NCBI GenBank assembly: GCA_964550205.1
Contig: CAZJYD010000008.1
Coordinates: 1-63,366, forward strand
DNA from: an uncultured Bacteroidales bacterium
GTDB taxonomy: Bacteria; Bacteroidota; Bacteroidia; Bacteroidales; JAIOZK01
Length of the DNA stretch: 63,366 nt
Direction of reading: 5' to 3'
Shown: piece by piece, positions 26,888 to 52,465 of the stretch
Position numbering within the stretch: position 1 is the stretch's first letter
Layout of the letters: each line of letters begins with the position of its first letter
Translations under genes and position numbers: made by a program
The notes under the pieces: model-generated
What the model saw: the letters and a program-made list of their open reading frames with translations, nothing else
What the model was told of the DNA's origin: nothing
Databases searched by the model: none

Positions 26888-26915
26888 TGTCTGAATTGAG
26901 ACATTGTATTTTTGC

Positions 26916-28253
26916 ATGAATATATTACTGATAAATCCGCCACGTTCGCCGTATAATAATATTTTATCCAATGCTTCAGAAGAAGCAAAACAATTCATAC
27001 ATAAAAAGCTTATAGGTCCTCCGTTAGGACTATTAACTATAGCAGAAGCAGCAAAAGAATATAATGTAACTTTATTTGATACTAAAGGTGAATATGATCT
27101 CAAGCCGGACACTCCTCCTTTAAAAGAACTCACACTTAAATTACTTGAGAAATATAAACCTGATGTAGTAGGCGTTACTATAATTACATCGGAATTTAAT
27201 TTTGCCCTGGAAATATTTGACGTTGTTAAACAATACGATCCTGAAATACTAACTGTAGCTGGAGGTTTACATGCAACATTATGCCCGGAGGATTTCAATT
27301 TACAAACTATTGATATAGTTTGCCCGGGTCAGGCAGGGAATACATTCAGGGAAGTTATCAGAGCCAAAGAAAAAAACCGGCCATACACTGATGTTGCCGG
27401 CATATATATTAATACACAAGTTGGGCTAGAGAAAACAAAAGTCCCTGCAAATAACTGGAATGCTGCAGGTGATGATTTTCTAATGCCTGACCGCACCCTG
27501 CTGGAAAGATGGAGATCGACTTACAGGGTGAAATCGGCTCCTTATCCTACTACATATACATTTACTTCTTTGGGCTGCCCTTACAGGTGTTCCTTTTGTT
27601 CAATATGGTGTGAATTCCAGGGTAAGTTTTTTCAGCGTAATGTTGAAAGTATTATCGAAGAATTAAAACACATTGATTATAATATTGTACGTTTTGCCGA
27701 TGCAAATACCATTGTAAATGTGGACTTTGTAGAGCAATTATTTGACAGGATAGAAGAAGAAGGAATTAAAAAGGAATATGTTATGGATATAAGGGCTGAT
27801 ACTGCTGTTAAATATCCCTGGCTCATTGAAAAGCTTGCAAAAAACGGCCTGAAGGTTGTCATATGCGGATTTGAATCTTATAAAGATTCTGAATTAAAGG
27901 AATATAATAAAAATACTTCGGCAGGTTATATTGAGGAAGCCGTTAATATATTTCATAATAACGACATATTAATCAGGGGGAATTATGTTATACCACCCCA
28001 TTATGATAAAGATGATTTTAAAGCATTGGCTGAATATGCCAATTCACATAAGGTTAATTATGCCGGATATACTATTCTTACACCTTTACCCGGCACACCT
28101 TTCTATAAAAAAGTAAAGGATCAGATCATTGATCACGACTATGCCAAATACAACTTTTTTAACTGTGTATTAAAAACGAAGTTGCCGCTTGAGGAGTTTT
28201 ATTATAGTATTGGTTCTTTGTGGTTGATAAAAAGAGGAGTGGATACTATATAA
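26916..28253 (+). CDS. B12-binding-domain radical SAM enzyme (rSAM 1)
   Basis: N-terminal cobalamin-domain-like blocks (KPDVVGVT, AGGLHAT). CX3CX2C CPYRCSFC at nt 27576-27599. ATG at 26916 preferred over the TTG at 26904. Confidence 0.85.
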   Translation: MNILLINPPRSPYNNILSNASEEAKQFIHKKLIGPPLGLLTIAEAAKEYNVTLFDTKGEYDLKPDTPPLKELTLKLLEKYKPDVVGVTIITSEFNFALEIFDVVKQYDPEILTVAGGLHATLCPEDFNLQTIDIVCPGQAGNTFREVIRAKEKNRPYTDVAGIYINTQVGLEKTKVPANNWNAAGDDFLMPDRTLLERWRSTYRVKSAPYPTTYTFTSLGCPYRCSFCSIWCEFQGKFFQRNVESIIEELKHIDYNIVRFADANTIVNVDFVEQLFDRIEEEGIKKEYVMDIRADTAVKYPWLIEKLAKNGLKVVICGFESYKDSELKEYNKNTSAGYIEEAVNIFHNNDILIRGNYVIPPHYDKDDFKALAEYANSHKVNYAGYTILTPLPGTPFYKKVKDQIIDHDYAKYNFFNCVLKTKLPLEEFYYSIGSLWLIKRGVDTI

Positions 28254-28276
28254 TTCTCGATTATTATTTTAATAAT

Positions 28277-28305
28277 ATAAAATCCAATTAACATAAAATC
28301 CAATT
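28277..28305. repeat. 13-bp direct repeat ataaaatccaatt x2 (3-bp spacer)
   Basis: Read directly at 28277-28289 and 28293-28305, in the convergent gap between rSAM 1 and the truncated rSAM stub. Confidence 0.7.
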
Positions 28306-28319
28306 TTTATAATTCCTTA

Positions 28320-28616
28320 TTAGTTTTTATTACAATATTTGCAATTATTTTCCTGGTTGAATCTTGTAAGAAAGATGATGAAAACGATTCCGAACCCAAC
28401 AATGTCTGGTTTAATTCTTTTTGGTATGGATTCTATTTCTTCATCAATTATCCTGATATGATAATTATCAGGTGTAAGTGCTGCCAGGGTGGGTAATGCC
28501 AGCGAAGTGTTGACAATTATTTTGCCCATAATGCGAGCCATGGTGAATTGCGTTGCGTATTGCTTGTATTTCTGAAAAGAATTTACTAAAAAAAGTTTGT
28601 ATTTTTTGTTATTCAA
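28320..28616 (-). pseudogene. truncated N-terminal stub of a fourth B12-binding radical SAM gene
   Basis: The 98-aa ORF matches rSAM N-termini only (LALPTLAALTPDNYHIRIIDEEIE...KPDIVGFG, compare rSAM 3 PVVFAATLPDYVSVDLIDENVE...VDFVGIS). It then diverges and stops, with no CX3CX2C in any frame downstream. Confidence 0.55.
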
Positions 28617-28620
28617 GGGT

Positions 28621-29733
28621 TTATCTTTTTCCTGCTGTAAAGCCTGCCTGCATAAATTTACTTACCTCAGTGACAAAACTAAGAATCAGATCATTTTTTT
28701 CTAATTTTTCTTCACGCAGAATTTTATCCAGGCAAATAAAGGCCATTGGGGGTCCATTATATCCCAGAGAGGATAACTTAGTATAGACCTTTTCTTTTGA
28801 AATTCCAAGTGATTCGCATTCCTCTATTATTAATTCTGCTATATGCCGGGAAGGAAAATTGATCTGAAAAAAACGTATTTTGTTAACATCAATGTCATAT
28901 TGTTTTATCATTCGCTTTAAACCTTTATAAAATACCGATCCGTCTTTTTCAATAAATTGCTTTCTTAATTGTTCATTAAATATTTGTTTAAGATGGTGGT
29001 AACCTTCCTCGTATTCTACCCTGGGATTCATCCAGTAGGCCGGTCGCTTATTATACATAGCCGGAGATTTTTTGCCTCCGGCGGATTCCATATATACATT
29101 CTCAAGAAATATACCATCATCTTTATCCGTGCTATTTTCAAGCAATACAGCGCCGGCCCCATCACTTAAAAAATACCTCAGGAAAAGTTCCTCCTTTTTT
29201 ATTTTTTTTTGATTGTAATAGTCTGCTCTTAATTCTGATGATGGAATATTCGAAGAAAGAACTAATGCATTGTTATACCTGCCTGATTTGATGAGTTCAT
29301 ATGCTGTAAGAAGAGCTTTATAAGCAGAAGTGCAATTTGCATGTATTGAGATTTCGCCGCATCTTTCAATACCCAATATGTCTTGTATCATAACTGATGG
29401 AGTGGGCATCTGGTCCTGATGTGGGCTTCCATATGCAATAAATTCTATGTCTTTTTTTTGAAATCCTGCCATTTGTAAAGCTTTTTCTGCAGCTTTAACT
29501 GACATGGAAATGTTATCATCAGTATATTTCCTGGTTAACGGATCTATTGCAAAATAATACTGATCTACTTCAAGTAGTTCGTGCATTATGTTTTTTGTCC
29601 TGTTTAACCATTTAACTATCTTATGAGGAGTATTAAGGAATTTCCCAAGGTAATTATCAATTTCTTCAAAAGAAACAGGTTTACCGGGAAGGTATGTGCC
29701 TGTTCCGGTAATTTTTACTTTACGGTTATTCAT
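28621..29733 (-). CDS. KAS III-like / DarB-like thiolase-fold protein with atypical triad
   Basis: Clear paralogue of DarB at 36744-37883 (YLPGKPVS.EE...YLG, FLR..LSDGAGAVL.EN). Cys134 is retained (HANCTSAY). The DarB His and Asn positions read Asn292 and Tyr325 in ungapped local alignment. Confidence 0.75.
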   Translation of the reverse strand: MNNRKVKITGTGTYLPGKPVSFEEIDNYLGKFLNTPHKIVKWLNRTKNIMHELLEVDQYYFAIDPLTRKYTDDNISMSVKAAEKALQMAGFQKKDIEFIAYGSPHQDQMPTPSVMIQDILGIERCGEISIHANCTSAYKALLTAYELIKSGRYNNALVLSSNIPSSELRADYYNQKKIKKEELFLRYFLSDGAGAVLLENSTDKDDGIFLENVYMESAGGKKSPAMYNKRPAYWMNPRVEYEEGYHHLKQIFNEQLRKQFIEKDGSVFYKGLKRMIKQYDIDVNKIRFFQINFPSRHIAELIIEECESLGISKEKVYTKLSSLGYNGPPMAFICLDKILREEKLEKNDLILSFVTEVSKFMQAGFTAGKR

Positions 29734-30413
29734 GATTTATTTTTTTCAAACTTTACAAACTTATCCAGTTCATCTTTAAGAAATATTGGATTGTAAGAAT
29801 CCTTAATGGTAAGTGCAAACTTTTCGGCAAAAACAACGGATGTCTTCTTTGGGACAATGTGATCTATTAGTTTCATTGATTTTGCTTCTTCAGGTGATAA
29901 GCTATCTCCGGAAAGAACGTATTCTATAGTTTTTGCTTTATGTGCATGAAGAAAAAAATTCTGAATACCGCCAATTCCAGGAATTAAATTAAACATGGAC
30001 TCGGGCAGGCTCAAATATGAACCTTCCTCACAAATCCTTACATTTGCAAATAATGCCAATTCAAGCCCCGCTCCTATACATACACCTCTTATCGCCGCAA
30101 TAACAGGGATATTCATCTTTTTTAAAGAGTAAAATGAATCTACGTTTTCCTTAAGAAAATCAGGTATTTTATCATTGGTATATTTCTTTTGTTTATTTAT
30201 TTGTTTTAAAAGATCATCCAGATCGGCCCCGGAAGAAAAATGACGACCTTTATTATACAATAAAATAGCCTGAACATCACTATTTGTTAATATATTGCTG
30301 ATCAGATTCTTGAAATCATTGTAGAAATGAGTGTCCATTCTGTTATCCGGTGGATTACTTAAAACAATATGTCCTATGTTCTGGATTTTTTTCCAATCAA
30401 TTCTTTCCATCAT
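29730..30413 (-). CDS. crotonase-fold enoyl-CoA hydratase/isomerase family protein (ECH 1)
   Basis: GRHFSSGADL oxyanion loop, CIGAGLELAL, LPES. 227 aa. Confidence 0.82.
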   Translation of the reverse strand: MMERIDWKKIQNIGHIVLSNPPDNRMDTHFYNDFKNLISNILTNSDVQAILLYNKGRHFSSGADLDDLLKQINKQKKYTNDKIPDFLKENVDSFYSLKKMNIPVIAAIRGVCIGAGLELALFANVRICEEGSYLSLPESMFNLIPGIGGIQNFFLHAHKAKTIEYVLSGDSLSPEEAKSMKLIDHIVPKKTSVVFAEKFALTIKDSYNPIFLKDELDKFVKFEKNKS

Positions 30414-30787
30414 ACACAGGTTTCATTGTTACTTAACTGGTAAACTACATATCCAGTTGCATAGTTTCGTGAATGGGATATCGAGCAATCAATACTTTTG
30501 ATATTAATATCTTTTAATTTCTTTTGGATTTCTTTATGAGTTTTTAGCACTGGTTTTCCAAGATCATTATTCAAAATTTCAATATAACGATAATTTATGT
30601 TTGAAATCAGAATTTTGTCAATTATGCACTTTTTTATAATAAAACGACCAGCTAAACTTCTGTATGCATTTTTTACGGGATAATTCCTGATTTCATTAAT
30701 TGTAAAGTATTTATTTATAAATTGTTCATTTTCTGCCATTGCCTTGAATTTTCCCAATTCTATTATGTCAAATTTTTCTTTTATCAT
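30410..30787 (-). CDS. AcpS-type 4'-phosphopantetheinyl transferase (PPTase 1)
   Basis: FDIIELGKF (GIDIxxIxR-like), RFIIKKC, SISHSRNYATGYV. Start trimmed to the ATG at 30787 to avoid overlap with ECH 2. Confidence 0.68.
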   Translation of the reverse strand: MIKEKFDIIELGKFKAMAENEQFINKYFTINEIRNYPVKNAYRSLAGRFIIKKCIIDKILISNINYRYIEILNNDLGKPVLKTHKEIQKKLKDINIKSIDCSISHSRNYATGYVVYQLSNNETCV

Positions 30788-30791
30788 TAGA

Positions 30792-31532
30792 TTAATCCTG
30801 CTTTTTATAAGGTTTTTGTGATGCCAATTCAAAAAACAACCTGGCATTCTCATACAGCGCTTCCTCATAAGTCATAGTTCGAATGTTATTTATTGATTGC
30901 ATAACACTGTTTATGATTGTTAGTGGCCTGTCATTAGTAATTCTTTTTAGTAATTCTATCGAAAACTCAAATGCCTTTTTTGATGGAACAAGATAGTCGA
31001 CCAAATGTATTCGGTGTGCCGTATTGGCATTAATGGTTTCACCTGATAATACCAGCTCAATACTTTTACCCTGTGATTGTAAAATATTTTGTATTCTTTG
31101 AATTCCGCCCAAACCAGGTATCAGATTATTAATTATCTCAGGAAATGCAAATAAAGATCTTTCCGAAGCTATTCTTATATGACATGCCAATGCGATTTCC
31201 AATCCTCCCCCAAAACAGATCCCTTCAATGGCAGCAACTATTGGAATATTTATGTTTTCAAGGTAGTTTAATACTTCATTGCCAAGATTTATTTCAGAAT
31301 GGAAATTTTTTCTTTTTACATCTTTGTATATCTTTTCTATATCGGCACCCGCAGAGAAATGTTTTCCTTTACCCTGAATAATAATTCCTTTAAGTGAATT
31401 ATTTTTGACAAAATCAATTAATTTATTTTTTTCTAACAGAACAGGGCTTTTTAAATAATTATGCGGAGTATCATTTATTGTAATGATACCGATTGAATTA
31501 TCTGTGTTTAGATCGACTGGATTTTTTTCCAT
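30792..31532 (-). CDS. crotonase-fold enoyl-CoA hydratase/isomerase family protein (ECH 2)
   Basis: GKHFSAGADI, CFGGGLEIAL, FPEI. 246 aa. Confidence 0.82.
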   Translation of the reverse strand: MEKNPVDLNTDNSIGIITINDTPHNYLKSPVLLEKNKLIDFVKNNSLKGIIIQGKGKHFSAGADIEKIYKDVKRKNFHSEINLGNEVLNYLENINIPIVAAIEGICFGGGLEIALACHIRIASERSLFAFPEIINNLIPGLGGIQRIQNILQSQGKSIELVLSGETINANTAHRIHLVDYLVPSKKAFEFSIELLKRITNDRPLTIINSVMQSINNIRTMTYEEALYENARLFFELASQKPYKKQD

Positions 31533-31534
31533 TA

Positions 31535-31918
31535 TTAGCTGTAAAGTTTTTCCGGTACATCAACCGGATTAAGTTCACTGTCAACCATCAACGCTTTTGT
31601 CTTTGACTTTGAAGCCAGTTTATTGTCTTTTTGTATAAATATCTTTTGTAAAAATACCAAATAAGGGGTTTCCATTTTTATCGATGTTTGTATTTCCACC
31701 TCGTCAAATAATTTTAATTCTTTGATATAACGAATATTTGTTTCAATCACTACAATGGAGTATTTATTATTTGAAAGATAATCAAGCATATCCAATTCCT
31801 TGAATACACACCATCTTGCCTGCTCAAGATAATTAAGATAAACAGCATTATTTAAGTGATTAAAACTATCAAGTTCATAACCTCTCACGGTTATATTATA
31901 TTTAAAGTGCTTGTTCAT
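31535..31918 (-). CDS. 4HBT/YbgC-type acyl thioesterase
   Basis: VRGYELDSFNHLNNAVYLNY hot-dog thioesterase signature. Confidence 0.72.
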   Translation of the reverse strand: MNKHFKYNITVRGYELDSFNHLNNAVYLNYLEQARWCVFKELDMLDYLSNNKYSIVVIETNIRYIKELKLFDEVEIQTSIKMETPYLVFLQKIFIQKDNKLASKSKTKALMVDSELNPVDVPEKLYS

Positions 31919-33329
31919 TTTTTGTATTTATTTTTTTTAAAATCTTATTGTGTTCGTGCTTTACAATTTTTTTCAATGGCATTTGGGTAAAATACGCGAA
32001 AAATGTTTTATGAATAATATCTGATATATGGTGGTTTTTATTTTTGCGGAATTTGTTGAAATAGAACAATGTTCGTTTTAGTATTTCTTTTCTGCTGTAC
32101 CCCTTGTTTTCGATGTTTAATAATGCTTTTATTAATTCATTATTACTAATGTTTTTATTAGGAACATTTGTAGCATTTGTATTAATATTGAGTAATTTGC
32201 CTTCTTTCTCCAACCGTTCAAATAAACGGCTTCCATGAAGTGCATAAACAGGATTGATTACAGGGAATATATTTGTTTCCCTGCAAAACTCTAATGTCTC
32301 ATAATAGGATTTTACAGTATCATTTTCATATCCGATTGTAAACCAGCCTGATAATATGATGCCTGAGTCCTGAAGGAATTCTATTTTATCCTTCATATCA
32401 GAAACCACATCATTGTCTTTTTGTATTCCCATCTTTTTTATGCTTCCGCTGGTTTTCAGGGTGTCAGGATTTATCGATTCCAACCCGACAGCAGCATATA
32501 TCAAACCGGATTCAACAGCCTTTTTTATTACTTTGCGCCCTTCATTTGAGGCAACTGCTTTTAAATTGGCCTGACCCATCCAGTATTTTTTCCCTGGCAA
32601 TTTACTTATTCGGTCATACAATTCATAATAGTAGTCATAGGATCCTTTTCTTCCGAAAACATTATCATCTATGAGGTAATAATAGCCTTTGAATTTCTTT
32701 ATTTCATTAACAACATCATTAATTGGTCTTGTTCTCGTATTTTTACCGAATACTTTTGATACAAGGCAAAAATCACAATCTATCGGACAGCCTCGTGAAG
32801 CATAGACCGTATCAAATTTATACTTATTCTTAAATGCATTGTGTGCAGGTCTTTTAATGGATTTAAGATCCGGTAAGTTATCAAGAAAATGTACGGTATA
32901 ATTTCCTGCATTAAATTCATTTGGAGAACATACATAAAAGTCTTTTAATTTATTATTTTCAAAATCACACAGTAATCGAGGCCATAGAAGTTCTCCCTCG
33001 CCAATTACTACTGCGTCGGCATGCTGTTTTGATACATAAGGATTAGCTGAAGCCTGCGGACCTCCCAAAATAACCGGTATATAATTTTTTCTGAATTTGT
33101 CAGCTATTTCAAATGCACTTTTCTCAGATGACATCTTTACACTTATCCCTACCAGGTCGGTTTTGTCATTATAATTTATTTTATCTCTTTTGCTATTTAA
33201 TAGATCAATTAAAGTATAATTGTGTTCAGGAGCTGCACTTACCAGGGTGGATAGCGATAAAGGCATAAATAATCTTCTTCCTTTTACATGGTCATCTTCT
33301 TCGGCTGCTAATATCAATTTAATATTCAT
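31902..33329 (-). CDS. B12-binding-domain radical SAM enzyme (rSAM 2)
   Basis: DLVGISV and LGGPQAS cobalamin-domain-like blocks. CX3CX2C CPIDCDFC at nt 32766-32789. Confidence 0.85.
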   Translation of the reverse strand: MNIKLILAAEEDDHVKGRRLFMPLSLSTLVSAAPEHNYTLIDLLNSKRDKINYNDKTDLVGISVKMSSEKSAFEIADKFRKNYIPVILGGPQASANPYVSKQHADAVVIGEGELLWPRLLCDFENNKLKDFYVCSPNEFNAGNYTVHFLDNLPDLKSIKRPAHNAFKNKYKFDTVYASRGCPIDCDFCLVSKVFGKNTRTRPINDVVNEIKKFKGYYYLIDDNVFGRKGSYDYYYELYDRISKLPGKKYWMGQANLKAVASNEGRKVIKKAVESGLIYAAVGLESINPDTLKTSGSIKKMGIQKDNDVVSDMKDKIEFLQDSGIILSGWFTIGYENDTVKSYYETLEFCRETNIFPVINPVYALHGSRLFERLEKEGKLLNINTNATNVPNKNISNNELIKALLNIENKGYSRKEILKRTLFYFNKFRKNKNHHISDIIHKTFFAYFTQMPLKKIVKHEHNKILKKINTKNEQAL

Positions 33330-33402
33330 TAATCGCAGTTCCTTATATGTTTTTTATTTTGATTTTGCTAGTGTAATGTCAAGTATAATGTGATGGTTAT
33401 TT

Positions 33403-33464
33403 ACACCCTCTGTCTCTCTGCACTCGGCATCTCCCCCTGCTCGCAGGGGAGAAAAAGAGGGGGT
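33403..33464. repeat. GC-rich nested hairpin island in a divergent intergenic region
   Basis: Inner stem ctcccc(c)tgc / gcaggggag and outer arms accctc / gagggggt, in an otherwise AT-rich 275-bp gap. Confidence 0.5.
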
Positions 33465-33604
33465 AAAATAAACGATAACTGCAAATTTACAATACATTTA
33501 CAAAATTATACTTTTAATAATTATCTATAATATTGCATAACATAAGTATGTTAATTTATTAGAAATTATTGAGATCAATTTGTTTGTAATAAACGAAAAA
33601 AATT

Positions 33605-35284
33605 GTGAAAAAAAGATCTGTGTTTACTAAGATATTGAAGATAACAGGAATAAGTCTGTTGGCTATTCTGATTATTTCATATGTATATGTAAAACTTGTT
33701 AGCAGGGTTGAACCTCCGGAAGTTCCTGTAACAGATATTGTAAAGGCCAAAGTTGTTACTAAAGATAATAACTTTTACAGTATAGGCAATTGCTGGCTGA
33801 AAGAGAGCGAAACAGGTATATGGGAGCTTTATATTGAAGGCAGCGCTTTTGAAAGAGGTGTGATTATAGGTAAACTTACCAAGGATTTAATAAGAAAACA
33901 GGAAGAAATATTTGTGTCAAAAGTAAAAGAATTTGTGCCTTCCCCAATTTATCGCAGCTTTTTGCAGATGATGATTGAGTATTTCAACCGTAATCTTGAT
34001 AGTAAGATACCGGATGAATACTTAAAGGAGATATACGGTATATCTTTATCAGCTTCAAAGGATTTTAATAGATACGGTTCACCATATATGAGAATTCTGA
34101 ATTATCATGCGGCTCATGATATAGGGCATGCTCTGGCAGATTATTCTTTTGTTGGTTGTACTTCATTTTCTTATTGGGATGTTACTAGAAAAGATACCTT
34201 GTTGATAACCGGTAGGAATTTTGATTTTTCAATAGGTGACGAATTTGCAGAAGATAAGATAGTTGCTTTTTTTGCTCCTGATGAAGGGAATAAATTTGCT
34301 TTTGTAACATGGGGAGGTATGATTGGTGTGGTTTCAGGAATGAATTGCCAGGGGATTTCGGTTACTATTAACGCTGCTAAGTCAGAATTGCCTATATCAT
34401 CGTCTACACCGATCTCAATCCTTACACGTGAAATTTTACAATATGCCGGAAATATTGATGAGGCTGTTAAGATAGCGAAAAAAAGACAAACCTTTGTTTC
34501 GGAATCAATATTGGTTAGCTCAGCAAGTGATGGTAAAACAATAATTATAGAGAAAACACCTTTAAAAGAAGCTGTCGTTTTTCCTGATTCCAATTATATA
34601 ATCTGTACAAATCATTTCAGAAGCAGGGTTTTCAGCGATACCAGTTTACCATCTTCAACCTCAAAATACCGTTATAAAAGAGTTAAGGAGCTATTTAACA
34701 GATACGATTCAATAACACCCGAAATAGCTGCAAGCATATTAAGAAACCGAAAAGGATTAAATGATGCGGATATTGGTAATGGAAATGAAAAAGCTATAAA
34801 TCAATTAATTGCACATCACTCTGTTCTTTTTGATTTATATAATAAGATAATGTGGGTATCTGCAAACCCTTATAATTTAGGTAAATATGTGGCTTATGAT
34901 TTGAATAAAGTATTTAAGGATTACAACGGATTAAAAGAAAATAAAGAAATTTACAATAAAGAGCTGAGCATACCACCCGACACTTTTTTGTTTACCAATG
35001 ATTATCAGCAGTTTATTAAATATAAAAGCCTGAGGAAAAAGATATTAAAGGCAACAGACAAAAGTAGGAGAATCAGTGCAGATACTTTAAAATTGTTTAG
35101 ATCCACAAATCCGGAATATTTTGAATTATATCTGGTTTTGGGTGATTATTATAAGAGCATACATCAATATAATAAAGCCATTGACAATTATAATATAGCA
35201 TTATCAAAAGAAATCGACTCTGAGAATAATGAAAAGAAAATATCAGAAAACCTTGAGGCATGCCTCGAAAATGCTAAAAGATAG
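33605..35284 (+). CDS. C45-family (Ntn, acyl-CoA:6-APA acyltransferase-like) protein with N-terminal membrane anchor and C-terminal TPR-like tail
   Basis: Hydrophobic N-terminus ITGISLLAILIISYVYV. Gly-Cys site FVGCTSFS (Cys185, nt 34157-34159). GTG start. Confidence 0.65.
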   Translation: MKKRSVFTKILKITGISLLAILIISYVYVKLVSRVEPPEVPVTDIVKAKVVTKDNNFYSIGNCWLKESETGIWELYIEGSAFERGVIIGKLTKDLIRKQEEIFVSKVKEFVPSPIYRSFLQMMIEYFNRNLDSKIPDEYLKEIYGISLSASKDFNRYGSPYMRILNYHAAHDIGHALADYSFVGCTSFSYWDVTRKDTLLITGRNFDFSIGDEFAEDKIVAFFAPDEGNKFAFVTWGGMIGVVSGMNCQGISVTINAAKSELPISSSTPISILTREILQYAGNIDEAVKIAKKRQTFVSESILVSSASDGKTIIIEKTPLKEAVVFPDSNYIICTNHFRSRVFSDTSLPSSTSKYRYKRVKELFNRYDSITPEIAASILRNRKGLNDADIGNGNEKAINQLIAHHSVLFDLYNKIMWVSANPYNLGKYVAYDLNKVFKDYNGLKENKEIYNKELSIPPDTFLFTNDYQQFIKYKSLRKKILKATDKSRRISADTLKLFRSTNPEYFELYLVLGDYYKSIHQYNKAIDNYNIALSKEIDSENNEKKISENLEACLENAKR

Positions 35285-35317: not shown

Positions 35318-36325
35318 TTAATAACGTATTGCTTTTCGTAATTCCCTGTATACATTTTCCTCATTATCAGCGATACCATGCACCATATCAGCAATAGAAT
35401 CAAATGAAATTTCATTCTGGCCTCTTTTTTTGCATATCCTGCTTGCCATTATTGCAAATTCACGCCATTGATCTCCGACCTCAGTCATTTTTTGAGAAAG
35501 CCCAAGCATTCTATCATTATCCAGAATTTCTGCAGCTTCCTGCAGAAAAGCCGAATAGAGAAATCTGAAGCCTGCACCCCCTGTGCCTATTTCTTCCTGC
35601 ATTCTTACAACCTGCCCCAGATACTTTGATGCTTTTTCTTCACCGATCCTTTTAGGCCATTTTCTTATTCTTGAAGAAAGGTAACGAATCCCCCGTACTC
35701 CTATTATTGGGCCCGGAAGCAAGACCATTTCAAAGATAGTTCTCTTTATTCCTTTTATTATTGCTTTTTTAAGATCGATCTCAGAAGGTACCTTACTAAT
35801 ATAGTACATTTTGCCTTTGGGTTTGTATGTACCCCTTGCATATCTTACCTTAATTAGTTCATCATAGGTAAGCTCCTGAGGTGTTTCCATAATGGGATCA
35901 CTAATGAGATATTTATTGTCTTCTTTTCCAAAGGCAATGATATTATGTGCATTGAAATGAAATCTATAAGGAGCAGGAAAATAGGGTAGGTGATAAACTC
36001 CAATCACCATACCTGTGGGAATACCATGATTTAGATTATTGTCTAATTCGTACATTGCCTTCTCGGGAGACCTGAAACGCTTTATTTCGGTGGAAATTCC
36101 AAGAGAGTGTCTTATACGTTTAAATATCAAACCCGGCAATGGTCTGAAAGTAGTGACCGGAATGCCGTTGAGTTTTATTATTGGCAGGTGAGAAAAAAAG
36201 ATACCTGAACCTATACCAAAAATCATAGGCTCACTAAGATCAATTCCATAATACCGCAAAAGGTTGGAAACTACTCCATTCTCACAATGGGCAGCCATAC
36301 GGTGGTCAAAATCGATCTTTGTCAT
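35318..36325 (-). CDS. BtrH-like protein (BtrH N-terminal cysteine-peptidase-like domain + C-terminal domain), copy 1
   Basis: DHRMAAHCENGVVSNLLRYYGIDLSEPMIFGIGSGIFF N-terminus (Cys14, nt 36284-36286). Paralogue of 48117-49133. Confidence 0.68.
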   Translation of the reverse strand: MTKIDFDHRMAAHCENGVVSNLLRYYGIDLSEPMIFGIGSGIFFSHLPIIKLNGIPVTTFRPLPGLIFKRIRHSLGISTEIKRFRSPEKAMYELDNNLNHGIPTGMVIGVYHLPYFPAPYRFHFNAHNIIAFGKEDNKYLISDPIMETPQELTYDELIKVRYARGTYKPKGKMYYISKVPSEIDLKKAIIKGIKRTIFEMVLLPGPIIGVRGIRYLSSRIRKWPKRIGEEKASKYLGQVVRMQEEIGTGGAGFRFLYSAFLQEAAEILDNDRMLGLSQKMTEVGDQWREFAIMASRICKKRGQNEISFDSIADMVHGIADNEENVYRELRKAIRY

Positions 36326-36730
36326 TTATTCCTCAATATTATTAATATCTTTAACACTATTTAAATTAAATGCTTCCATGTACTTGATAAGCGTCTTATT
36401 TTTTAATTTATTAAAGGGTTTGGGTTTAAGGTGCCTCTTAACACATAAGATAAAAATGCCTGTATATTCAGATAGTAATTTAGGGGTCATCATATTCTTT
36501 TTCATATAATAGTATATGGGACTCGCTCTTCCGTCTTTTACTTTTCTTCTTGCTTCTTCAATTTCTTTGTTAGTATCTTCCCACACCTGTTTCATTACGA
36601 TATTTTTGGGTTTCCAGCCTACGCTCTTTATCTTTACATATTTTCCATCCTTATCAACTGCATACTGGATTTCTCTGGTTTTACCATTTAACATATTTTC
36701 ATCATCCTGAGGTACTTGATTTACTTTCAT
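36326..36730 (-). CDS. small protein with C-terminal XRE-like helix-turn-helix, copy 1
   Basis: Paralogue of 47647-48120 (S..YYYM....L....GI....KH.KP..FN..K.KTL.KY.E.FN). Its stop directly abuts the BtrH-like ATG (TAAATG). Confidence 0.45.
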   Translation of the reverse strand: MKVNQVPQDDENMLNGKTREIQYAVDKDGKYVKIKSVGWKPKNIVMKQVWEDTNKEIEEARRKVKDGRASPIYYYMKKNMMTPKLLSEYTGIFILCVKRHLKPKPFNKLKNKTLIKYMEAFNLNSVKDINNIEE

Positions 36731-36743
36731 TAGTTTATTGTTT

Positions 36744-37883
36744 TTAAACCACTGTTAAAAGAGCGTATGTGTATGAAAATCTTGCACTTTCAGGAACCAT
36801 CACCAAGAGTTTTTCTCCTGGGTTTAATTTACCTGAATTAAAAAGTTCTTCAAGTATCAGATAAATGGATGCAGAACCAACATTTCCAACCCTTTCAAGG
36901 TTTAAAGACCAGCGTTCCAAAGGAATTGGTATTTTTAATCGTTTCATTTCCTCATATATTTTTTCTTTGAAAAAATAAGAAGAAATATGGGGGATGAAAT
37001 GATCTATATCGTTAATATTTAGATTGTATTTATCCAAAATATAAACAAGTCCTCTGCCTCCGTATTTTACTATGTTTTCTTCCAGCAATTTAACATCCTG
37101 TTTTAGTGAAAAAACAGAGTTGCTGATTATCTCATTTAAGGAGCAGTCTCTCCAAGGCATTAATTCACTACTATTTTTTTTAATACCACCGGCATACATG
37201 CAAGTATCCACTTCATTTGCATAAGATTTAATGTCTATCCATTCAACTTTAAGTGATGTTTTATTTATTGCAGGTTTATTTTCCATAAGAACTGCACCAG
37301 CGCCGTCCGAAAGCATCCATCTGAGAAATTCATTTTCAAATGCTATATAAGGGTTTTTACCCAATTCTTGATGTTTTGCAGTTTCTTCTTCAAAGTTTTT
37401 TGATAAAAGCCAGGTAGATAATTTCTCTGAACCCGTACATACGGCATTATTTGTATTTCCTGTAATAAGAGAGTAATAACCATATTTTAATGCCGACATC
37501 CCTGCATTGCAACTGCCACTTGCTGATATTATTTCGATGGGATTGCATTTAAGTTTGCCATGTACCATTGATGCATGACCGGGTAATAATTGATCAGGTG
37601 AAGTTGTTCCGCATGCCAGTAATTCAATGTCATTCAGTTTAAAATGATCATCAAAAAGCTTTTGTATTGCTTCAACAGTAATATCGGTATTGCTGTGTGT
37701 GGAATTACCTTTTTTATCAATCGCATAATATCGTGAAGTGATTTTATTATTTCTGAGAATTATGTTTTTTGATCTTGATTTTGATCCGTTGATCAAACCA
37801 AGGTATTCTTCCATCTCTTCGTTGCTTACTGGTTTATTTGGTAAATATTTAGAACTAGCTGTTATGTATGCTTTACTTATCAT
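36744..37883 (-). CDS. darB: dialkylresorcinol-forming KAS III-like condensing enzyme
   Basis: Cys125 (ASGSCNAGM), His299 (FIPHIS), Asn334 (VGNVGSAS). Directly downstream of the darA-like gene. Confidence 0.78.
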   Translation of the reverse strand: MISKAYITASSKYLPNKPVSNEEMEEYLGLINGSKSRSKNIILRNNKITSRYYAIDKKGNSTHSNTDITVEAIQKLFDDHFKLNDIELLACGTTSPDQLLPGHASMVHGKLKCNPIEIISASGSCNAGMSALKYGYYSLITGNTNNAVCTGSEKLSTWLLSKNFEEETAKHQELGKNPYIAFENEFLRWMLSDGAGAVLMENKPAINKTSLKVEWIDIKSYANEVDTCMYAGGIKKNSSELMPWRDCSLNEIISNSVFSLKQDVKLLEENIVKYGGRGLVYILDKYNLNINDIDHFIPHISSYFFKEKIYEEMKRLKIPIPLERWSLNLERVGNVGSASIYLILEELFNSGKLNPGEKLLVMVPESARFSYTYALLTVV

Positions 37884-37970: not shown

Positions 37971-38882
37971 TTATTTTTTAATACCTGAATAATATTTAAT
38001 ATCTGATTCGGATGAGGATCTTAGTATTATTTTCTTCAAATTAAAAAATAAAGAAGCAATGGGTGAGATTATAAAAATGACAAATAGCAAATAATATTTA
38101 AATAATCTGACTAATAATAGTCTTGTTTTCTTATTCTTTTTTTCTGCTTTCAGTATTAAACCGGCCCATATTCTGAAAATGCGTTTGGCATTTTTTTCCA
38201 TTTGTAAAATATTATATTGAATTTCAACAGCTTTCTCCTTAGTGAGTTCATCTTGCAGTTTTAAATAATCATTATTTAATAAATGCTTTTTTATTATAGT
38301 ACCATATTTTGATGATTCTGCTATTTCTTTATCCGAAACACCTGCAGAAGGAAGAAACCTGTATGGGCCTTTATTTCCTTTTATTAACCATTTTATTATT
38401 GTGATAACACTGATTAAATTATTTGACTTATCGGTGAAAACGATATTGCCTACTAACTCAGCCTCCATTTTATATAAATAACTTTTAATATCTTCCTGTG
38501 CCATCACCCACATATTCCTAACTCCAGAAATTGTTATAATCTTTTTTCCTTTTAATAACCGATGAGTTTCAGGCTTATGAAGAAAGCTTGTAACAGGCAA
38601 GGAAGGAGATAAGTACCAAACAGAGTACCCCAGAATTATGAGATCATATTTATTTAAAGGCGGGTTTACCGGTTTTATTTCACAAGGAATCAATTTAACT
38701 GATTCGGGAAAAACATTGAAAAAGTCATCTGACTTCCACGGAAAGCTATAATCAGGAATGGGATTTATTCTTTCATAGTCAATATGTATATTAGGATCGC
38801 TTGCTAATGGTCCAAGCAAATTCTTTAATATTTCTTCCAGTTGACCTGTTTGTGAATAATATACTACCAAAATACTTTTCAT
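37971..38882 (-). CDS. darA: DarA-like dialkylresorcinol aromatase/condensing-enzyme partner
   Basis: Flavodoxin-like N-terminus ILVVYYSQTGQLEEIL, C-terminal hydrophobic helix, ~300 aa. Paired with darB. Confidence 0.62.
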   Translation of the reverse strand: MKSILVVYYSQTGQLEEILKNLLGPLASDPNIHIDYERINPIPDYSFPWKSDDFFNVFPESVKLIPCEIKPVNPPLNKYDLIILGYSVWYLSPSLPVTSFLHKPETHRLLKGKKIITISGVRNMWVMAQEDIKSYLYKMEAELVGNIVFTDKSNNLISVITIIKWLIKGNKGPYRFLPSAGVSDKEIAESSKYGTIIKKHLLNNDYLKLQDELTKEKAVEIQYNILQMEKNAKRIFRIWAGLILKAEKKNKKTRLLLVRLFKYYLLFVIFIISPIASLFFNLKKIILRSSSESDIKYYSGIKK

Positions 38883-39799
38883 TGGGCCAGGATAGTATTT
38901 AGTTTGTTTACCGGAATAATTGTAAAATCTTTATCGATGAATTTTCCAATTCTGTATAATGAATCTCCAGGTCCGCATTCTATGCAATATTTTATTTCCA
39001 GTGAATTCAGTTTTTTCATTGTATTATGCCAGTTCAATGGTGTTTTTAAGTTTCTGACAAGTTCGTGTCTGATCTGTTCGGGATTTAAAAGTATTTGCTG
39101 ATCAATAGAGGATACGATTGGGTACCTGGGTTTATTTATTCTTAGTTTGTCAACAAAGGTAGAAAAATAATTTTCAGTTTCTTTTAGATATTTTGAATGA
39201 TAAGGAATTGAAGTATTGATAACTCCTGTTTGTATGGCGCCTTCATTTTTTGCGATTTTTATAATTCTAATGATATCACCTTTTTTCCCAGATAATAATG
39301 TGGAATGAATGTTATTGGTATTCACGATTTCAACACAAAGATTATTTTCTGATATATTATTTTGAATTTCTTCCTTGTTCAACCCTACTATATAACCCAT
39401 TCCGAATTCTGATTTAGATGGAATAACTTTTCTGCATATTTCATAAGCATTAATAATCAATTGAAGTCCATCGTTAAATGAAATGGCATTAATATCATAT
39501 AGTGCAGAATAAATGCCCATACTTATACCTGCAACATAATCCGGATATTGATTTTTTTGTTTCAGCAATTTTGAAACCCCGCAACTTATTATATATGTGA
39601 TATACTGGTTTTTGAGCTCATTATCCATAAAGTTATTTTCTTTTATATCGAACTCTGTAATGTTGGAATTAACGATGTGTTGAGCTTCTGTTAAGATATT
39701 CCCGAAATTAATATTATGATCGTTAAGAATTTTAACTTCAGCTCCCGTGTACTTTTGCACAAAGGCAGGAAATAAATGTACCGAGGCAGATTTAGTCAT
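38879..39799 (-). CDS. FabD-like acyl-carrier-protein acyltransferase, atypical
   Basis: GxSxG GISMG and PYHS His retained. The GQGSQ position reads PAFVQKY, and the malonyl-binding Arg position reads Ala by eye (INAYEICRK). Confidence 0.65.
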   Translation of the reverse strand: MTKSASVHLFPAFVQKYTGAEVKILNDHNINFGNILTEAQHIVNSNITEFDIKENNFMDNELKNQYITYIISCGVSKLLKQKNQYPDYVAGISMGIYSALYDINAISFNDGLQLIINAYEICRKVIPSKSEFGMGYIVGLNKEEIQNNISENNLCVEIVNTNNIHSTLLSGKKGDIIRIIKIAKNEGAIQTGVINTSIPYHSKYLKETENYFSTFVDKLRINKPRYPIVSSIDQQILLNPEQIRHELVRNLKTPLNWHNTMKKLNSLEIKYCIECGPGDSLYRIGKFIDKDFTIIPVNKLNTILAQ

Positions 39800-40178
39800 C
39801 TGTAAGTATAATTTTAAAAATTACATAATCATTTGTTGTTTCAAATGAAGAAATTGCTTTTTTAATATTGAGCTTATTCCGGTATTCCTCTGCAAACCCT
39901 GAAAAACGTATTTCATGATTTTCAATATCCTCATGAAATAACAATTCAATTTCTTTCCAGTCAATAGGGCTGTTTGTCCAGCTAATACCAAACGCTTTAA
40001 ATGCTGCTTCCTTACAGGCAAATCCTAAGGGAAAGCCAACGATTCCTTTCAGTGTATAGTTAGTCATAATCTCAGCTTGGGAAAAAACTGTTTTTAAAAA
40101 TGGATGTGTTGAATTTTCCTTGGTTAGATACTTTTTAAACCTGTTTATTTCTGTAATATCAATACCGCATCTTACCAT
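39792..40178 (-). CDS. AcpS-type 4'-phosphopantetheinyl transferase (PPTase 2)
   Basis: CGIDITEINRF N-terminus, CKEAAFKAFG. Confidence 0.75.
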   Translation of the reverse strand: MVRCGIDITEINRFKKYLTKENSTHPFLKTVFSQAEIMTNYTLKGIVGFPLGFACKEAAFKAFGISWTNSPIDWKEIELLFHEDIENHEIRFSGFAEEYRNKLNIKKAISSFETTNDYVIFKIILTDD

Positions 40179-40195: not shown

Positions 40196-40501
40196 TTAAT
40201 AGATTTCCAGGATTTTGTTTTCATGTTCAATGATTAGCAACTGCATATCTATTAATTCTCCGATTTTACGGACAGGATGTTTTGTACTGTATTTTCCTAT
40301 TGTCTTAAGTTCTATATTTAGGTCGTATTTCTTCTTATATATTTCTATGAGCTCCAGAAACATAAGTGAGTCACCTTCCAGGTCTTCAAAGATATCTGTT
40401 TCTTCTGTGATTGTATTTTTATCTACTTCGCATTCCTCGGCAAAAAAGTCGATAAGAATTTTCTTTACTTCCTTTCTTGTGTTTTTATTGATTTCTGCCA
40501 T
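40196..40501 (-). CDS. acyl carrier protein (ACP 3 of 4)
   Basis: LEGDSLMFLEL attachment motif. 101 aa, acidic. Confidence 0.8.
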   Translation of the reverse strand: MAEINKNTRKEVKKILIDFFAEECEVDKNTITEETDIFEDLEGDSLMFLELIEIYKKKYDLNIELKTIGKYSTKHPVRKIGELIDMQLLIIEHENKILEIY

Positions 40502-40580: not shown

Positions 40581-41798
40581 TTATGTGTATTTTTTAAGCA
40601 CGAGAGTAGCGTTATGTCCTCCAAAACCAAAAGAGTTAACAAGAGCTGCATTAATTTTTTTCATCCTCCTTTTATTGGGAACATAATCCAGATCCAGATC
40701 CGGATCGGGATTATTTAAATTAATAGTAGGTGTAATTATATTAGCATCAATGCTCATAGCCGTAATGGCCGATTCAATTGCTCCGGCAGCGCCTATAGTG
40801 TGGCCTATCATCGATTTGGAAGATGATATGGGTATATTGTAAGCATCCTTAGTAAATATTTCTTTAATAGCTATAGTTTCGAACAGATCGTTTAATACTG
40901 TAGAAGTTCCATGTGCATTGATGTAATCAATATCGGATTTATTTATTCCGCTGTTTTCTATTGCTATTTTCATGGTTTCTGTCATGCCTTTTCCATCTGT
41001 TCTGGGAGCCATAATATTATATGCCTCATTGGTAAGAGCGTATCCGGCCACCTCCGCATAAATATGTGCATTTCTTTTGATGGCAGCATGTTCTGCCTCC
41101 AATAATATCATTCCCGCACCTTCACCTATGACGAAGCCACTCCTATCCTTTGAAAATGGTTTACTTGCTTTTTCAGGAATATCATTCTCAGTTGAAAGTG
41201 CATATAATTCATTGAAACCTCTGATCTCTTCCGGATTTACTGTAGAATCAGTACCGCCCGCTATTACAAGGTCAGCTATTCCGTGCCTGATCAAATCATA
41301 GCCTTGTGCTATTGCATAAGCTGATGAAGAGCATGCGGTTGAAATTGCATAATTAGGTCCGTGAAAACCATATTCCATTGCAATCCAGGCTCCAGGTGCA
41401 TTATTCATGTTCTTTATAACAGTGTTTTTGGAGCTTGTTACCTTTTCAATACTTGAATTGCCTGTTGTAACTATCCCCATTATTACAGCACAGCGTGCCT
41501 TATTAAATTTATTAAGATCAATATTGCTCTTGTTTATCATTTCCTTGGCACAAACCACTCCCATTTTAGTTACTCTGGTCATTTGTTTTGCAGCTCGCTT
41601 TTTGATATATTGTGGATAGAATTGGTTAAAATCTGATGTAACTTCTCCTGCGATTTGTGTCTCCAGTTCCGAAGGATCAAATAAAGATATTCTTGAAATT
41701 CCAGAATTACCTTGCGTGAGGTTTTTCCAGTTTTCTTTTGCGTTTAGTCCAAGTGCTGAGATAATATTTAATCCTGTGATGAATACTCTTGTTTCCAT
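40581..41798 (-). CDS. beta-ketoacyl-ACP synthase II-like (FabF-like)
   Basis: STACSSSAYA, AHGTST, GHTIGAAGA, NSFGFGGHNA. Confidence 0.9.
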   Translation of the reverse strand: METRVFITGLNIISALGLNAKENWKNLTQGNSGISRISLFDPSELETQIAGEVTSDFNQFYPQYIKKRAAKQMTRVTKMGVVCAKEMINKSNIDLNKFNKARCAVIMGIVTTGNSSIEKVTSSKNTVIKNMNNAPGAWIAMEYGFHGPNYAISTACSSSAYAIAQGYDLIRHGIADLVIAGGTDSTVNPEEIRGFNELYALSTENDIPEKASKPFSKDRSGFVIGEGAGMILLEAEHAAIKRNAHIYAEVAGYALTNEAYNIMAPRTDGKGMTETMKIAIENSGINKSDIDYINAHGTSTVLNDLFETIAIKEIFTKDAYNIPISSSKSMIGHTIGAAGAIESAITAMSIDANIITPTINLNNPDPDLDLDYVPNKRRMKKINAALVNSFGFGGHNATLVLKKYT

Positions 41799-41815: not shown

Positions 41816-42862
41816 CTATAATTTTTTGCTTAATGAGAAAGGTCCTGATTCAGATCCTAATAATTCTGTTAATGCAAAATCTATTTCATTATCTGTTAAA
41901 TTTGTTTGTTGCTTTATATTCAATGCTGATTCTAAGTACCATGATTCAAATTTTGCATTCACATCAGAAATATATTTTTTATTGTTATTAGTTGATTGAT
42001 TTTTATACGAACTTATCCTGATGTTATTTTTATAATCGTAAAAACCCTTGCCATTTTTTATTCCAAAACGATTTGATGAAATTTTCTTTTCAAGCTCCTG
42101 CATCAAGGGGTAATAGAATTCTTTATCTTTTTCTGATTTAATATAATTACAAATTGAATAATATGCAGTATCAATACCAATATGATCAAACATTTCGAAG
42201 ATACCGGGATTGAAAAAATTATTACTAACTATAGAATCCACTTCTTCATAGCTAAGTATGTTTTCTTGTATAATATGACAAGCACCGGCCTGTAGCCTTA
42301 ACAGAAACTTGTTTAAAATAAAGGCATTTTGCTCATTAAGAATTAAATAATGTTTATCTATTTTATTTAGGAAATCCAGTATATAGTTAATTGTATTTTT
42401 AGCAGTATTTTTTAGAATTATAAACTCAGCAATATTTTTTAACTCAACAGGAAAGAAAAAGTGTAATCCTACAAACTTATCACTGCGTTTATTGGAGGGA
42501 ATAATAAGTGAAGGAAGTATGGATGACGAATTCGTAGCAAATATGCAGTTATCATTAATAATTGTATCAATATTTGAAAATAGATCTTTCTTTTTTTTTA
42601 GATTTTCAGTAATTGTTTCAATAATGATATTACAATCCGACAGATCAGAAATATCATGAGTTATTTTTTTTTGCCTGCTAGTATCTTTTGTAATGACCTT
42701 ATTTTTTACTAGTCGGTTAACACGTTTTTCGTATTGTTTTTTCAGAGAGGATGAATCCTTATAATGATACAGAGTAACGGGAAAATTAAAATATAGTAAT
42801 GAAGAGAAAAGGTTAATTCCCATTTTTCCTGCACCTGTTATTCCAATATTAGGGGACTTCAT
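41816..42862 (-). CDS. 3-hydroxyacyl-CoA dehydrogenase family protein
   Basis: IGITGAGKMG NAD motif and the GLHFFFPVE signature. Confidence 0.75.
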   Translation of the reverse strand: MKSPNIGITGAGKMGINLFSSLLYFNFPVTLYHYKDSSSLKKQYEKRVNRLVKNKVITKDTSRQKKITHDISDLSDCNIIIETITENLKKKKDLFSNIDTIINDNCIFATNSSSILPSLIIPSNKRSDKFVGLHFFFPVELKNIAEFIILKNTAKNTINYILDFLNKIDKHYLILNEQNAFILNKFLLRLQAGACHIIQENILSYEEVDSIVSNNFFNPGIFEMFDHIGIDTAYYSICNYIKSEKDKEFYYPLMQELEKKISSNRFGIKNGKGFYDYKNNIRISSYKNQSTNNNKKYISDVNAKFESWYLESALNIKQQTNLTDNEIDFALTELLGSESGPFSLSKKL

Positions 42863-43019: not shown

Positions 43020-43066
43020 TTTTGTTTTTCTGTTTTAAGATAGAAAGCAATTTGGAGGAAGATAAA

Positions 43067-47553: not shown

Positions 47554-47646
47554 ATTTGCTAATAAAATTTGATGACCCAATTAACGAAATTGAAGTAATT
47601 TTACAAACAAAAATAAGCTAAGAAATTTTGTTTAAAATCAATATTG

Positions 47647-49133: not shown

Positions 49134-49138
49134 ATTGT

Positions 49139-49420: not shown

Positions 49421-49512
49421 ATGAGTTGTAAAAATTATTAGTTTAAACCAGCAGAATTTATTACTTTTATTGATATATTCAACCAGAATTTTAAATCTAA
49501 AACTTATTAATC

Positions 49513-52456: not shown

Positions 52457-52465
52457 AGTTTATGT

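Follow-up and report, generated by a model that had tools for sequence, protein, structure and literature searches.

An uncharacterized six-gene operon of uncultured Bacteroidales as the core of a conserved gene set, with a possible role in making a second head-to-head-joined lipid beside a dialkylresorcinol pathway

The first 63,366 nucleotides of contig CAZJYD010000008.1 of an uncultured Bacteroidales bacterium (assembly GCA_964550205.1), which stem from a microbial mat metagenome and are here termed the window, harbor a flexirubin-type cluster and, on the minus strand from 33329 to 28621, an unassigned operon of six genes. These code for a radical S-adenosylmethionine enzyme of putative B12 type (rSAM2), a thioesterase, crotonase A, an AcpS-fold protein (PPTx), crotonase B and a thiolase-fold enzyme resembling β-ketoacyl-ACP synthase III (KAS III), here termed KAS3x. 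The question raised by this locus is whether the operon, hereafter the cassette, feeds or tailors acyl precursors for the dialkylresorcinol (dar) pathway encoded nearby, or produces a further ring or lipid of another kind, two options that the original prediction, made from sequence inspection, had left side by side. We report here that the six genes form the core of a more extensive gene set that is strongly conserved among uncultured anaerobic Bacteroidales. Since DarB is missing from 79 of 80 related loci and TAL from 78, and since the cassette has conserved partners of its own, the second option is favored over the first, and we tentatively propose, with somewhat less than even confidence, that the cassette is self-contained and builds a second fatty-acid-derived lipid, hydroxylated or phenol-like and joined head-to-head, that would then be methylated, sulfated or acylated.

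The database contains 1,424 relatives of KAS3x, and of 185,579 species-representative genomes 306 carry such relatives; the complete MAG chromosomes CP070687.1 and OY782882.1 are among the carriers of the cassette. The neighborhood survey covered the best 80 of these 306 genomes, 10 kb on each side of the KAS3x gene, and every open reading frame (ORF) of the 80 loci was scored against all window proteins; gene content, order, partners and the state of catalytic residues are direct observations. All 80 loci come from metagenome-assembled genomes (MAGs) of Bacteroidales, Marinilabiliales, Rikenellaceae and Lentimicrobiaceae, plus a few bins labelled Spirochaetes, Chlorobiota or Leptospirales, and sample names suggest sediments, digesters and groundwater as habitats of the related MAGs. 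The order thioesterase, crotonase, (AcpS-like protein), crotonase, KAS3x recurs in about 70 of the 80 loci, from species-level genomes with 61-68% protein identity, and for that reason the arrangement is more than chance; missing core members fall mostly at contig ends. Crotonase B is present in 76 loci, crotonase A in 72 and the thioesterase in 70, followed by a 3-hydroxyacyl-CoA dehydrogenase-family enzyme (HCDH, 50), a FabF-type ketosynthase (KS, 48), the AcpS-like protein (36), an rSAM of the rSAM2/rSAM3 type (32), an acyl carrier protein (ACP) and an acyltransferase (AT) with 28 loci each, a phenol-type O-methyltransferase (OMT, 26), a CrtD-like FAD oxidase (24), rSAM4 (20), a 124-aa protein, rSAM1 and a C45 acyltransferase (19 each), a FlxY-like ligase (12) and a sulfotransferase (6). 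The genes of the pigment and dar pathways are, by comparison, rare: TAL is found in 2 loci, and DarA, DarB and the DarG/DarH pair linked to DarB (DarG1/DarH1) in 1, where DarA and DarB lie within 10 kb of KAS3x; an adjacent DarA/StlC-type aromatase is hence no feature of the cassette. Where DarG and DarH genes accompany the cassette elsewhere, they are orthologous to a second pair of the window (DarG2/DarH2) in 9 loci and to the DarB-linked pair in 1. The survey proposed in the original prediction hence places this conserved arrangement mostly outside flexirubin clusters.

The association extends beyond close homologs. Relatives of KAS3x with 50%, 42% and 37% identity have KS, ACP, AT, crotonase and B12-rSAM genes as neighbors, and those of 50% and 42% identity are also accompanied by HCDH and by an rSAM orthologous to rSAM1 (381 and 298 bits, respectively). 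A FabG-type reductase gene lies near the cassette in 3 of the 80 loci, and no gene for full-chain reduction was seen beside it in any of them, enoyl reductases not having been screened for. About 7 loci carry the cassette inside aryl-polyene-type KS/CLF clusters, and most cassette loci are devoid of aryl starter genes. In two loci (L063 and L074) the thioesterase and crotonases are missing and the KAS III-like gene is the immediate neighbor of TAL and FabG within a flexirubin-type cluster; in L063 HCDH and KS are still close to it. Five loci in bins labelled Chlorobiota, Leptospirales and Spirochaetes (L054, L061, L067, L068 and L076) present a near-identical cassette, at 63-65% identity, which reflects either lateral transfer or mis-binning.

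The enzyme on which any assignment turns is KAS3x (28621-29733, minus strand, 370 aa). Its best profile is StlD/DarB, its nearest solved structure by sequence is StlD (E = 1e-21), and it has in common with DarB and StlD the motif FLR(Y/W)xLSDGAGA, at an overall identity of 24-28%. The models of this family (NF005293 and NF053539) give it 140.7 bits against the StlD/DarB cutoff of 450 and 118.7 bits against the DarB cutoff of 550, whereas the true DarB of the window reaches 559.5 and 586.3 bits on the two models. Its residues were read by alignment to the window DarB and to StlD (PDB 5gk0; the His302Ala mutant is 5gk2). The active-site Cys is kept as Cys134, but Asn292 occupies the position of the catalytic His and Tyr325 that of the catalytic Asn, so that the Cys-His-Asn active site of StlD and DarB is not preserved; Cys134, Asn292, Tyr325, His105, His246 and His247 are invariant in 81 of 81 KAS3x relatives. 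The protein is no FabH either, scoring 84 bits on TIGR00747 (cutoff 292) and lacking the His and Asn required for malonyl-ACP decarboxylation. A full-library search with KAS3x returned 35 clusters at E ≤ 1e-30, delineating a broader clade in which identity falls to about 31% and H(A/S)NC(T/S), G-x-H-H and G-Y are held in common; DarB and StlD, like KAS III-like sequences farther away, show P-H and G-N instead. The label "DarB-like" given by the original prediction is consequently apt for the nearest relative and wrong as to membership: by sequence, KAS3x is a relative nearest to StlD/DarB and not a DarB. An AlphaFold2 model (pLDDT 69) has StlD as its best fold match (TM-score 0.70), followed by FabH, AbyA1, MxnB, OleA, PqsD and ChlB3; its thiolase core is confident, and the insertions specific to the family (residues 20-60, 164-190 and 219-256) have pLDDT below 50. 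It is possible that Asn292 and Tyr325 serve as oxyanion-hole donors, with the invariant His residues as candidate bases.

The hot-dog thioesterase (4HBT, YbgC/FadM-like; 31535-31918, minus strand, 127 aa; Pfam 4HBT_2, 65 bits) has Asp17 and His21 invariant in 71 of 71 relatives. Both crotonases, A (30792-31532, minus strand, 246 aa; Pfam ECH_1, 118 bits) and the C-terminally short B (29730-30413, minus strand, 227 aa; ECH_1, 99 bits), are of the hydratase/dehydratase type: they carry the oxyanion-hole motifs and both catalytic Glu residues of enoyl-CoA hydratases (GGGLE/FPE and GAGLE/LPE), as had been noted by eye, with Glu112 and Glu132 of crotonase A conserved in 71 of 72 relatives and Glu118 and Glu138 of crotonase B in 77 of 77. 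Best matches in the PDB are true enoyl-CoA hydratases for A and hydratases for B, which also matches RpfF weakly (E = 6e-11); neither crotonase reaches an equivalog cutoff. PPTx (30410-30787, minus strand, 125 aa), previously called a phosphopantetheinyl transferase (PPTase), does pass the generic domain model TIGR00556 (51.2 bits, cutoff 45.35). We take the Mg-binding residues of AcpS, from the AcpS structure literature, to be Asp8 and Glu58 (Bacillus subtilis numbering); among the 36 PPTx family members the former is not conserved and the latter is mostly Lys, as it is in the window, while the GKP and SxSHS motifs are kept. The name therefore holds for the fold, and PPTx is, on these residues, probably a catalytically dead PPTase that serves as a scaffold or as a subunit binding CoA. 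Since AcpS and crotonases each form trimers, a complex between PPTx and the crotonases is conceivable.

The six genes are intact and co-directional, and the coordinates, motifs and lack of an ACP gene within the operon described in the original prediction were all borne out. Successive junctions comprise a 17-nt overlap, a 2-nt gap and, beyond PPTx, two 4-nt overlaps; the intervening junction of crotonase A and PPTx conforms to the close spacing first described (overlaps of 0-17 nt or gaps of 1-4 nt) only if PPTx starts at Met28 (position 30787), which leaves a 4-nt gap and is backed by the N-termini of aligned homologs, whereas the longest ORF (30410-30868, 152 aa) would extend 77 nt into the crotonase A gene. 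Pfam and NCBIfam agree with all six assignments, none of the six proteins reaches a specific, family-level NCBIfam cutoff, and the TIGR00556 score of PPTx is the sole NCBIfam cutoff passed in the operon. Together with our finding no paper that describes this gene set, this agrees with the earlier statement that no described pathway is known to have it. A promoter and terminator scan of 28000-34000 was uninformative (34 sites against 32 expected, with a sigma-70 model), but two Bacteroidetes-type TAnnTTTG boxes can be recognized by eye about 150-175 nt upstream of the rSAM2 start codon (near 33480-33505). The leader upstream of rSAM2 also contains a GC-rich element of about 70 nt (33398-33467, minus strand) with a CTCCCCTGC/CAGGGGGAG hairpin, present as a single copy in the window of a genome with 32% GC; it folds no better than shuffled sequences (z = -1.7), and an Rfam search of the whole window, this element included, gave no match.

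The conserved partners of the cassette are all present in the window, dispersed over three operons (33329-28320, 42862-38879 and 47644-54171). The second, on the minus strand, comprises HCDH (41816-42862, 348 aa; 3HCDH_N, 117 bits), the FabF-type elongating KS (40581-41798, 405 aa; PRK07314, 434 bits, cutoff 387), a dedicated ACP (40196-40501, 101 aa; PP-binding, 29.9 bits), a canonical AcpS-type PPTase (39792-40178, 128 aa; Pfam ACPS, 30.5 bits) and a FabD-fold AT (38879-39799, 306 aa). Catalytic residues are conserved, with Ser-His-Glu of HCDH invariant in 51 of 51 relatives, Cys-His-His of KS intact in 48 of 48 (Cys156 kept) and Ser45 of ACP invariant in 29 of 29; given these residues and those of the thioesterase and crotonases, the partner enzymes look active. 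The 128-aa AcpS likewise has intact GIDI..E and CKEA..K motifs and both Mg ligands. The AT is not a FabD (139 bits on TIGR00128, cutoff 261): Ser93 and His201 are kept, and the malonyl-binding Arg117 of FabD is replaced by Ala, as it is by Ala or Val in 25 of 25 relatives, on account of which the AT probably loads a non-carboxylated acyl group. The third operon, on the plus strand, starts with the second pair (47644-49133), made up of a DarG-like protein of 158 aa (DarG_fam 64.8 bits, slightly under 70) and a DarH-like acyltransferase of the BtrH type with 338 aa (DarH 331 bits, above the cutoff of 300). It continues with a block (49513-54171) of an unassigned 204-aa protein, the OMT (50283-51374; Methyltransf_2, 137 bits, plus Dimerisation domain), a sulfotransferase-like protein (51371-52456), the putative B12-rSAM rSAM4 (52466-53731) and the unassigned 124-aa protein (53797-54171), the last two of which form a pair directly upstream of the thioesterase gene in about 17 loci.

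Radical SAM genes are recurrent members of the set. In rSAM2 (31902-33329, minus strand, 475 aa), the first gene of the operon, Pfam identifies Radical_SAM (37.5 bits), DUF4070 (23 bits) and, weakly, a B12-binding domain (19.9 bits, cutoff 32.1); the CxxxCxxC motif lies at residue 181 and is also found in rSAM1 and rSAM4, and rSAM2-type genes precede the thioesterase in other loci too. The gene for rSAM1 (26904-28253, plus strand, 449 aa; B12-binding 59 bits, Radical_SAM 63 bits) converges on the end of the operon, and its nearest families are HpnR and BchE, far under cutoff. These rSAMs are orphan types; no functional subfamily cutoff is reached by any of them, the nearest models (HpnR, BchE, HpnJ and PhpK) scoring far below. 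Four nucleotides downstream of the KAS3x gene starts a 98-aa ORF (28320-28616, minus strand) that consists of the first ~78 codons of a further gene, rSAM3, plus read-through. It matches the ~520-aa B12-rSAMs located downstream of KAS3x elsewhere (phmmer E = 3e-24, 22 of 22 matched) and none of 31 upstream-type rSAMs, and rSAM3 follows KAS3x in 22 related loci. Given that contigs from two independent runs show the identical deletion junction near 28382, the ORF is a real truncated seventh gene, which the original prediction had not listed. As a class, B12-rSAMs would provide oxygen-independent C-methylation or other radical steps.

Taken together, these data allow a route to be outlined, in which substrates, reaction type and product are what we infer from gene content. 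DarB and StlD join 3-oxoacyl and 2-enoyl thioesters through successive Michael and Claisen steps into a carboxy-cyclohexanedione, which DarA aromatizes (PMC6836626), and the partners of the cassette are those needed to make and interconvert 3-oxoacyl and 2-enoyl thioesters. The FabF-type KS, with its ACP and the non-malonyl AT, would yield a 3-oxoacyl thioester; HCDH would interconvert its 3-oxo and 3-hydroxy forms, and the two Glu/Glu crotonases the 3-hydroxy and 2-enoyl forms. KAS3x may then load an acyl group on Cys134 and join two chains without decarboxylation, as in the Michael-Claisen chemistry of DarB/StlD, giving a cyclic dione, a resorcinol-like compound or a related hydroxylated head-to-head lipid; non-decarboxylative joining is the most economical proposal because KAS3x keeps the Cys and lacks the malonyl-decarboxylation residues. 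The hot-dog thioesterase would free the product, B12-radical SAM enzymes would alter unactivated carbons without oxygen, and a free hydroxyl could then undergo O-methylation, O-sulfation or, through the second DarG/DarH pair, acylation. The most likely outcome in the window would be a second acceptor for the flexirubin-type aryl-polyene.

OMT, sulfotransferase and DarH-type acyltransferase are three hydroxyl-decorating types that accompany the cassette in different lineages and, together with a glycosyltransferase beside a distant relative of KAS3x, they suggest that the product bears a free hydroxyl of phenolic or enolic nature. That glycosyltransferase is UDP-dependent and occurs in L086/L087, where a 42% relative of KAS3x is followed by an rSAM1 ortholog, HCDH, KS, the UDP-glycosyltransferase, a Flavodoxin_5 protein and NDP-sugar genes, and where a glycosylated version of the product is possible. 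The sulfotransferase adjoins the cassette in L001 (CP070687.1), L070, L075 and L078, from Rikenellaceae and Bacteroidales bins, which suggests a sulfated product in these lineages; in L001 the cassette also adjoins genes for APS kinase and CysD/CysN-like proteins.

Several observations weigh against a second head-to-head lipid. No member of the family has a known product or activity, and the replacement of the catalytic His and Asn of DarB/StlD means that the chemistry of KAS3x may be unlike that of DarB. The invariant His246 and His247 fall in the insertions with pLDDT below 50, too low to place the two residues in the active site or to check its geometry. About 20 loci have neither ACP nor AT within 10 kb, and a DarA-type aromatase adjoins the cassette in only one of the 80. 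Moreover, as the survey spanned 10 kb per side, DarB could sit elsewhere in those genomes.

The last point bears on a first rival, in which crotonases, thioesterase and KAS3x supply or edit thioesters or alkyl chains for DarB and there is no separate product. The gene layout of the window speaks for it: HCDH, KS, ACP, AcpS and AT are joined by a 4-nt overlap to darA-darB-darG-darH in a single operon, which has a reductase and no dehydratase of its own and thereby makes the two crotonases its only dedicated dehydratases, and one locus (L029) holds the cassette and the dar system side by side. This translational coupling of genes that elsewhere accompany KAS3x implies that they make DarB-type substrates, which also counts for the route outlined above, and leaves room for some sharing with the dar pathway. 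As a general role, feeding is nevertheless distinctly unlikely in view of the rarity of DarB (1 of 80 loci) and TAL (2 of 80) near the cassette, of a thiolase-fold enzyme of its own with six active-site-region positions invariant in 81 of 81 relatives, and of its own DarG/DarH paralogs, O-methyltransferase and sulfotransferase; furthermore, hydratase and radical SAM genes are not part of model flexirubin clusters, and neither appears in the published flx/dar gene table (PMC3992019). What survives of the earlier suggestion that the operon feeds or tailors the dar pathway is hence at most a possible side role in this window.

Alternatively, KAS3x may make an acyclic product, behaving like OleA, whose non-decarboxylative Claisen condensation gives a 2-alkyl-3-oxo acid, or like a ChlB3/CerJ-type acyltransferase, so that a branched, mycolate-like or ester lipid results. 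OleA, ChlB3, MxnB and AbyA1 are indeed close in structure (TM-score ~0.6-0.66), KAS III-like enzymes that have given up malonyl decarboxylation typically lack the His/Asn pair, the invariant His105 lies in the loop that supplies Phe87' in FabH and Glu117 in OleA, and HCDH, crotonases and thioesterase could all work after condensation. Still, by sequence and by profile KAS3x is clearly most similar to StlD/DarB, a phenol-type OMT and a DarH-type acyltransferase better fit a phenolic or enolic acceptor, and homologs of OleB, OleC and OleD are all absent, so that we regard this product as unlikely, and no less so the accompanying route, with reduction by HCDH and dehydration by the crotonases once the chains are joined. 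A non-reducing chain builder, in which KAS3x primes and KS, HCDH and crotonases extend a polyenoyl or hydroxy/enoyl chain for a pigment or a signal (akin to the cis-2-enoic acids of the DSF type, set free by crotonase and thioesterase), would account for the KS, the 3-keto reductase equivalent, the two dehydratase equivalents and the thioesterase, with an enoyl reductase neither sought nor seen, and would be congruent with the RpfF match of crotonase B and with the ~7 cassettes in aryl-polyene-type clusters. It seems, if anything, more doubtful than a general feeding role, because a priming KAS III needs, for malonyl-ACP decarboxylation, the His and Asn that are absent from KAS3x in 81 of 81 relatives, because KS/CLF pairs, FabG and FabA-like dehydratases for the polyene are already encoded in the window, and because aryl starter genes are missing from most cassette loci. 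Finally, AT, ACP, KS, a thiolase-fold enzyme and two crotonases mirror pksC/acpK/pksF/G/H/I, and residues 69-164 of KAS3x match HMG-CoA synthase (HMGS) weakly in NCBIfam (E = 8.5e-8), as would befit a β-branching cassette adding a methyl branch to a polyketide or lipid chain. This reading is largely refuted by sequence tests and highly improbable: KAS3x has no HMGS Pfam domain and no HMGS among its PDB matches, the Glu pair of hydratases is intact in both crotonases, whose matches are hydratases rather than ECH2 decarboxylases, the KS retains its active-site Cys in 48 of 48 relatives and is hence not a decarboxylase-only KS, and the AT is devoid of the malonyl-binding Arg.

The surrounding cluster provides the context of the cassette. 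The window contains a genuine flexirubin-type cluster, with TAL (43022-44605), FlxY (673 bits, cutoff 520), KS/CLF pairs, FabG and FabA-like dehydratases for the polyene, and LolA/LolB2. Outside the cassette, darA (37971-38882, a 303-aa flavodoxin-like protein whose homologs are named DarA by NCBI and UniRef; the AT gene overlaps it by 4 nt), darB (36744-37883; DarB 586 bits, cutoff 550), darG (36326-36730; DarG_fam 144, cutoff 70) and darH (35318-36325, BtrH-like; DarH 462, cutoff 300), all on the minus strand, constitute a canonical dialkylresorcinol operon. The flexirubin-type cluster also contains a plus-strand gene (13916-17749) for a 1277-aa protein in which an MMPL/RND-like transporter is fused to a PlsC-type acyltransferase and to a SAM methyltransferase; orthologs of this fusion accompany the cassette in 9 loci.

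If a second head-to-head lipid is indeed made, 306 or more species-level genomes share a gene set for a lipid or pigment building block that has not been described, KAS3x would show how the DarB/StlD scaffold can work without its His/Asn pair, and the locus would reveal how, in the absence of oxygen, several cobalamin radical SAM enzymes act on a scaffold derived from fatty acids. A bolder version, which we hold to be doubtful, is that KAS3x founds an unrecognized class of thiolase-fold enzymes forming C-C bonds with Cys/Asn/Tyr and a relocated His-His, and that, together with dedicated β-oxidation-type enzymes and several B12-rSAMs, it provides an oxygen-independent route to new ring-bearing or head-to-head lipids; just as doubtful is its corollary that uncultured anaerobic Bacteroidales methylate, sulfate or glycosylate these lipids or esterify them to aryl-polyenes. 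For genome mining, loci with the cassette should not be labelled merely "resorcinol" or "flexirubin", the cassette being a separate unit with its own decorating enzymes.

Comparison with known systems places the cassette close to, and outside of, several of them. The likeness to DpgA/DpgB/DpgD raised by the original prediction, in which a thiolase-fold condensing enzyme with two small crotonase-fold helpers yields a resorcinol-type ring, extends only to the superfamily level. DpgA is a type III polyketide synthase that uses malonyl-CoA only; KAS3x scores 16.7 bits on the chalcone-synthase domain Chal_sti_synt_N (cutoff 27), and the crotonases, with 71 bits on the DpgD model (cutoff 400), are no closer to DpgD than to generic hydratases, so that membership was rejected. 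OleA, MxnB/CorB, AbyA1, PqsD and ChlB3 have the same fold as KAS3x and illustrate how the KAS III scaffold has been reused for head-to-head joining and acyl transfer, but OleA-type enzymes lie in different operon contexts. As general background rather than from the alignments made here, these five keep the His and mostly Asn or Asp, and we know of no OleA-type KAS III-like enzyme with a Cys/Asn/Tyr plus His-His pattern. Cyanobacterial "DarA-less" DarB homologs, with no adjacent aromatase, a different predicted reactivity and unknown products (PMC6836626), offer another parallel, although they belong to another phylum and other gene contexts, and no link to crotonase, thioesterase or B12-rSAM partners has been reported for them. 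The flexirubin clusters of Chitinophaga pinensis and Flavobacterium johnsoniae resemble the window in FlxY, TAL, KS/CLF, LolA/LolB2 and DarB/G/H, and a second ester partner of the aryl-polyene may come from the cassette here, which is, however, mostly found outside such clusters. With DarB/StlD themselves the cassette has in common the active-site Cys, the FLRxxLSDGAGA motif, a supply of 3-oxoacyl and 2-enoyl thioesters and DarG/DarH-type partners; it differs from them in the absence of DarA from 79 of 80 loci, in the new invariant His105 and His246/His247 of KAS3x, and in its dedicated crotonases, thioesterase, HCDH, KS and up to four types of B12-rSAM. The enzyme superfamilies involved are thus all known and the logic resembles that of dialkylresorcinol biosynthesis, but the key enzyme is unusual.

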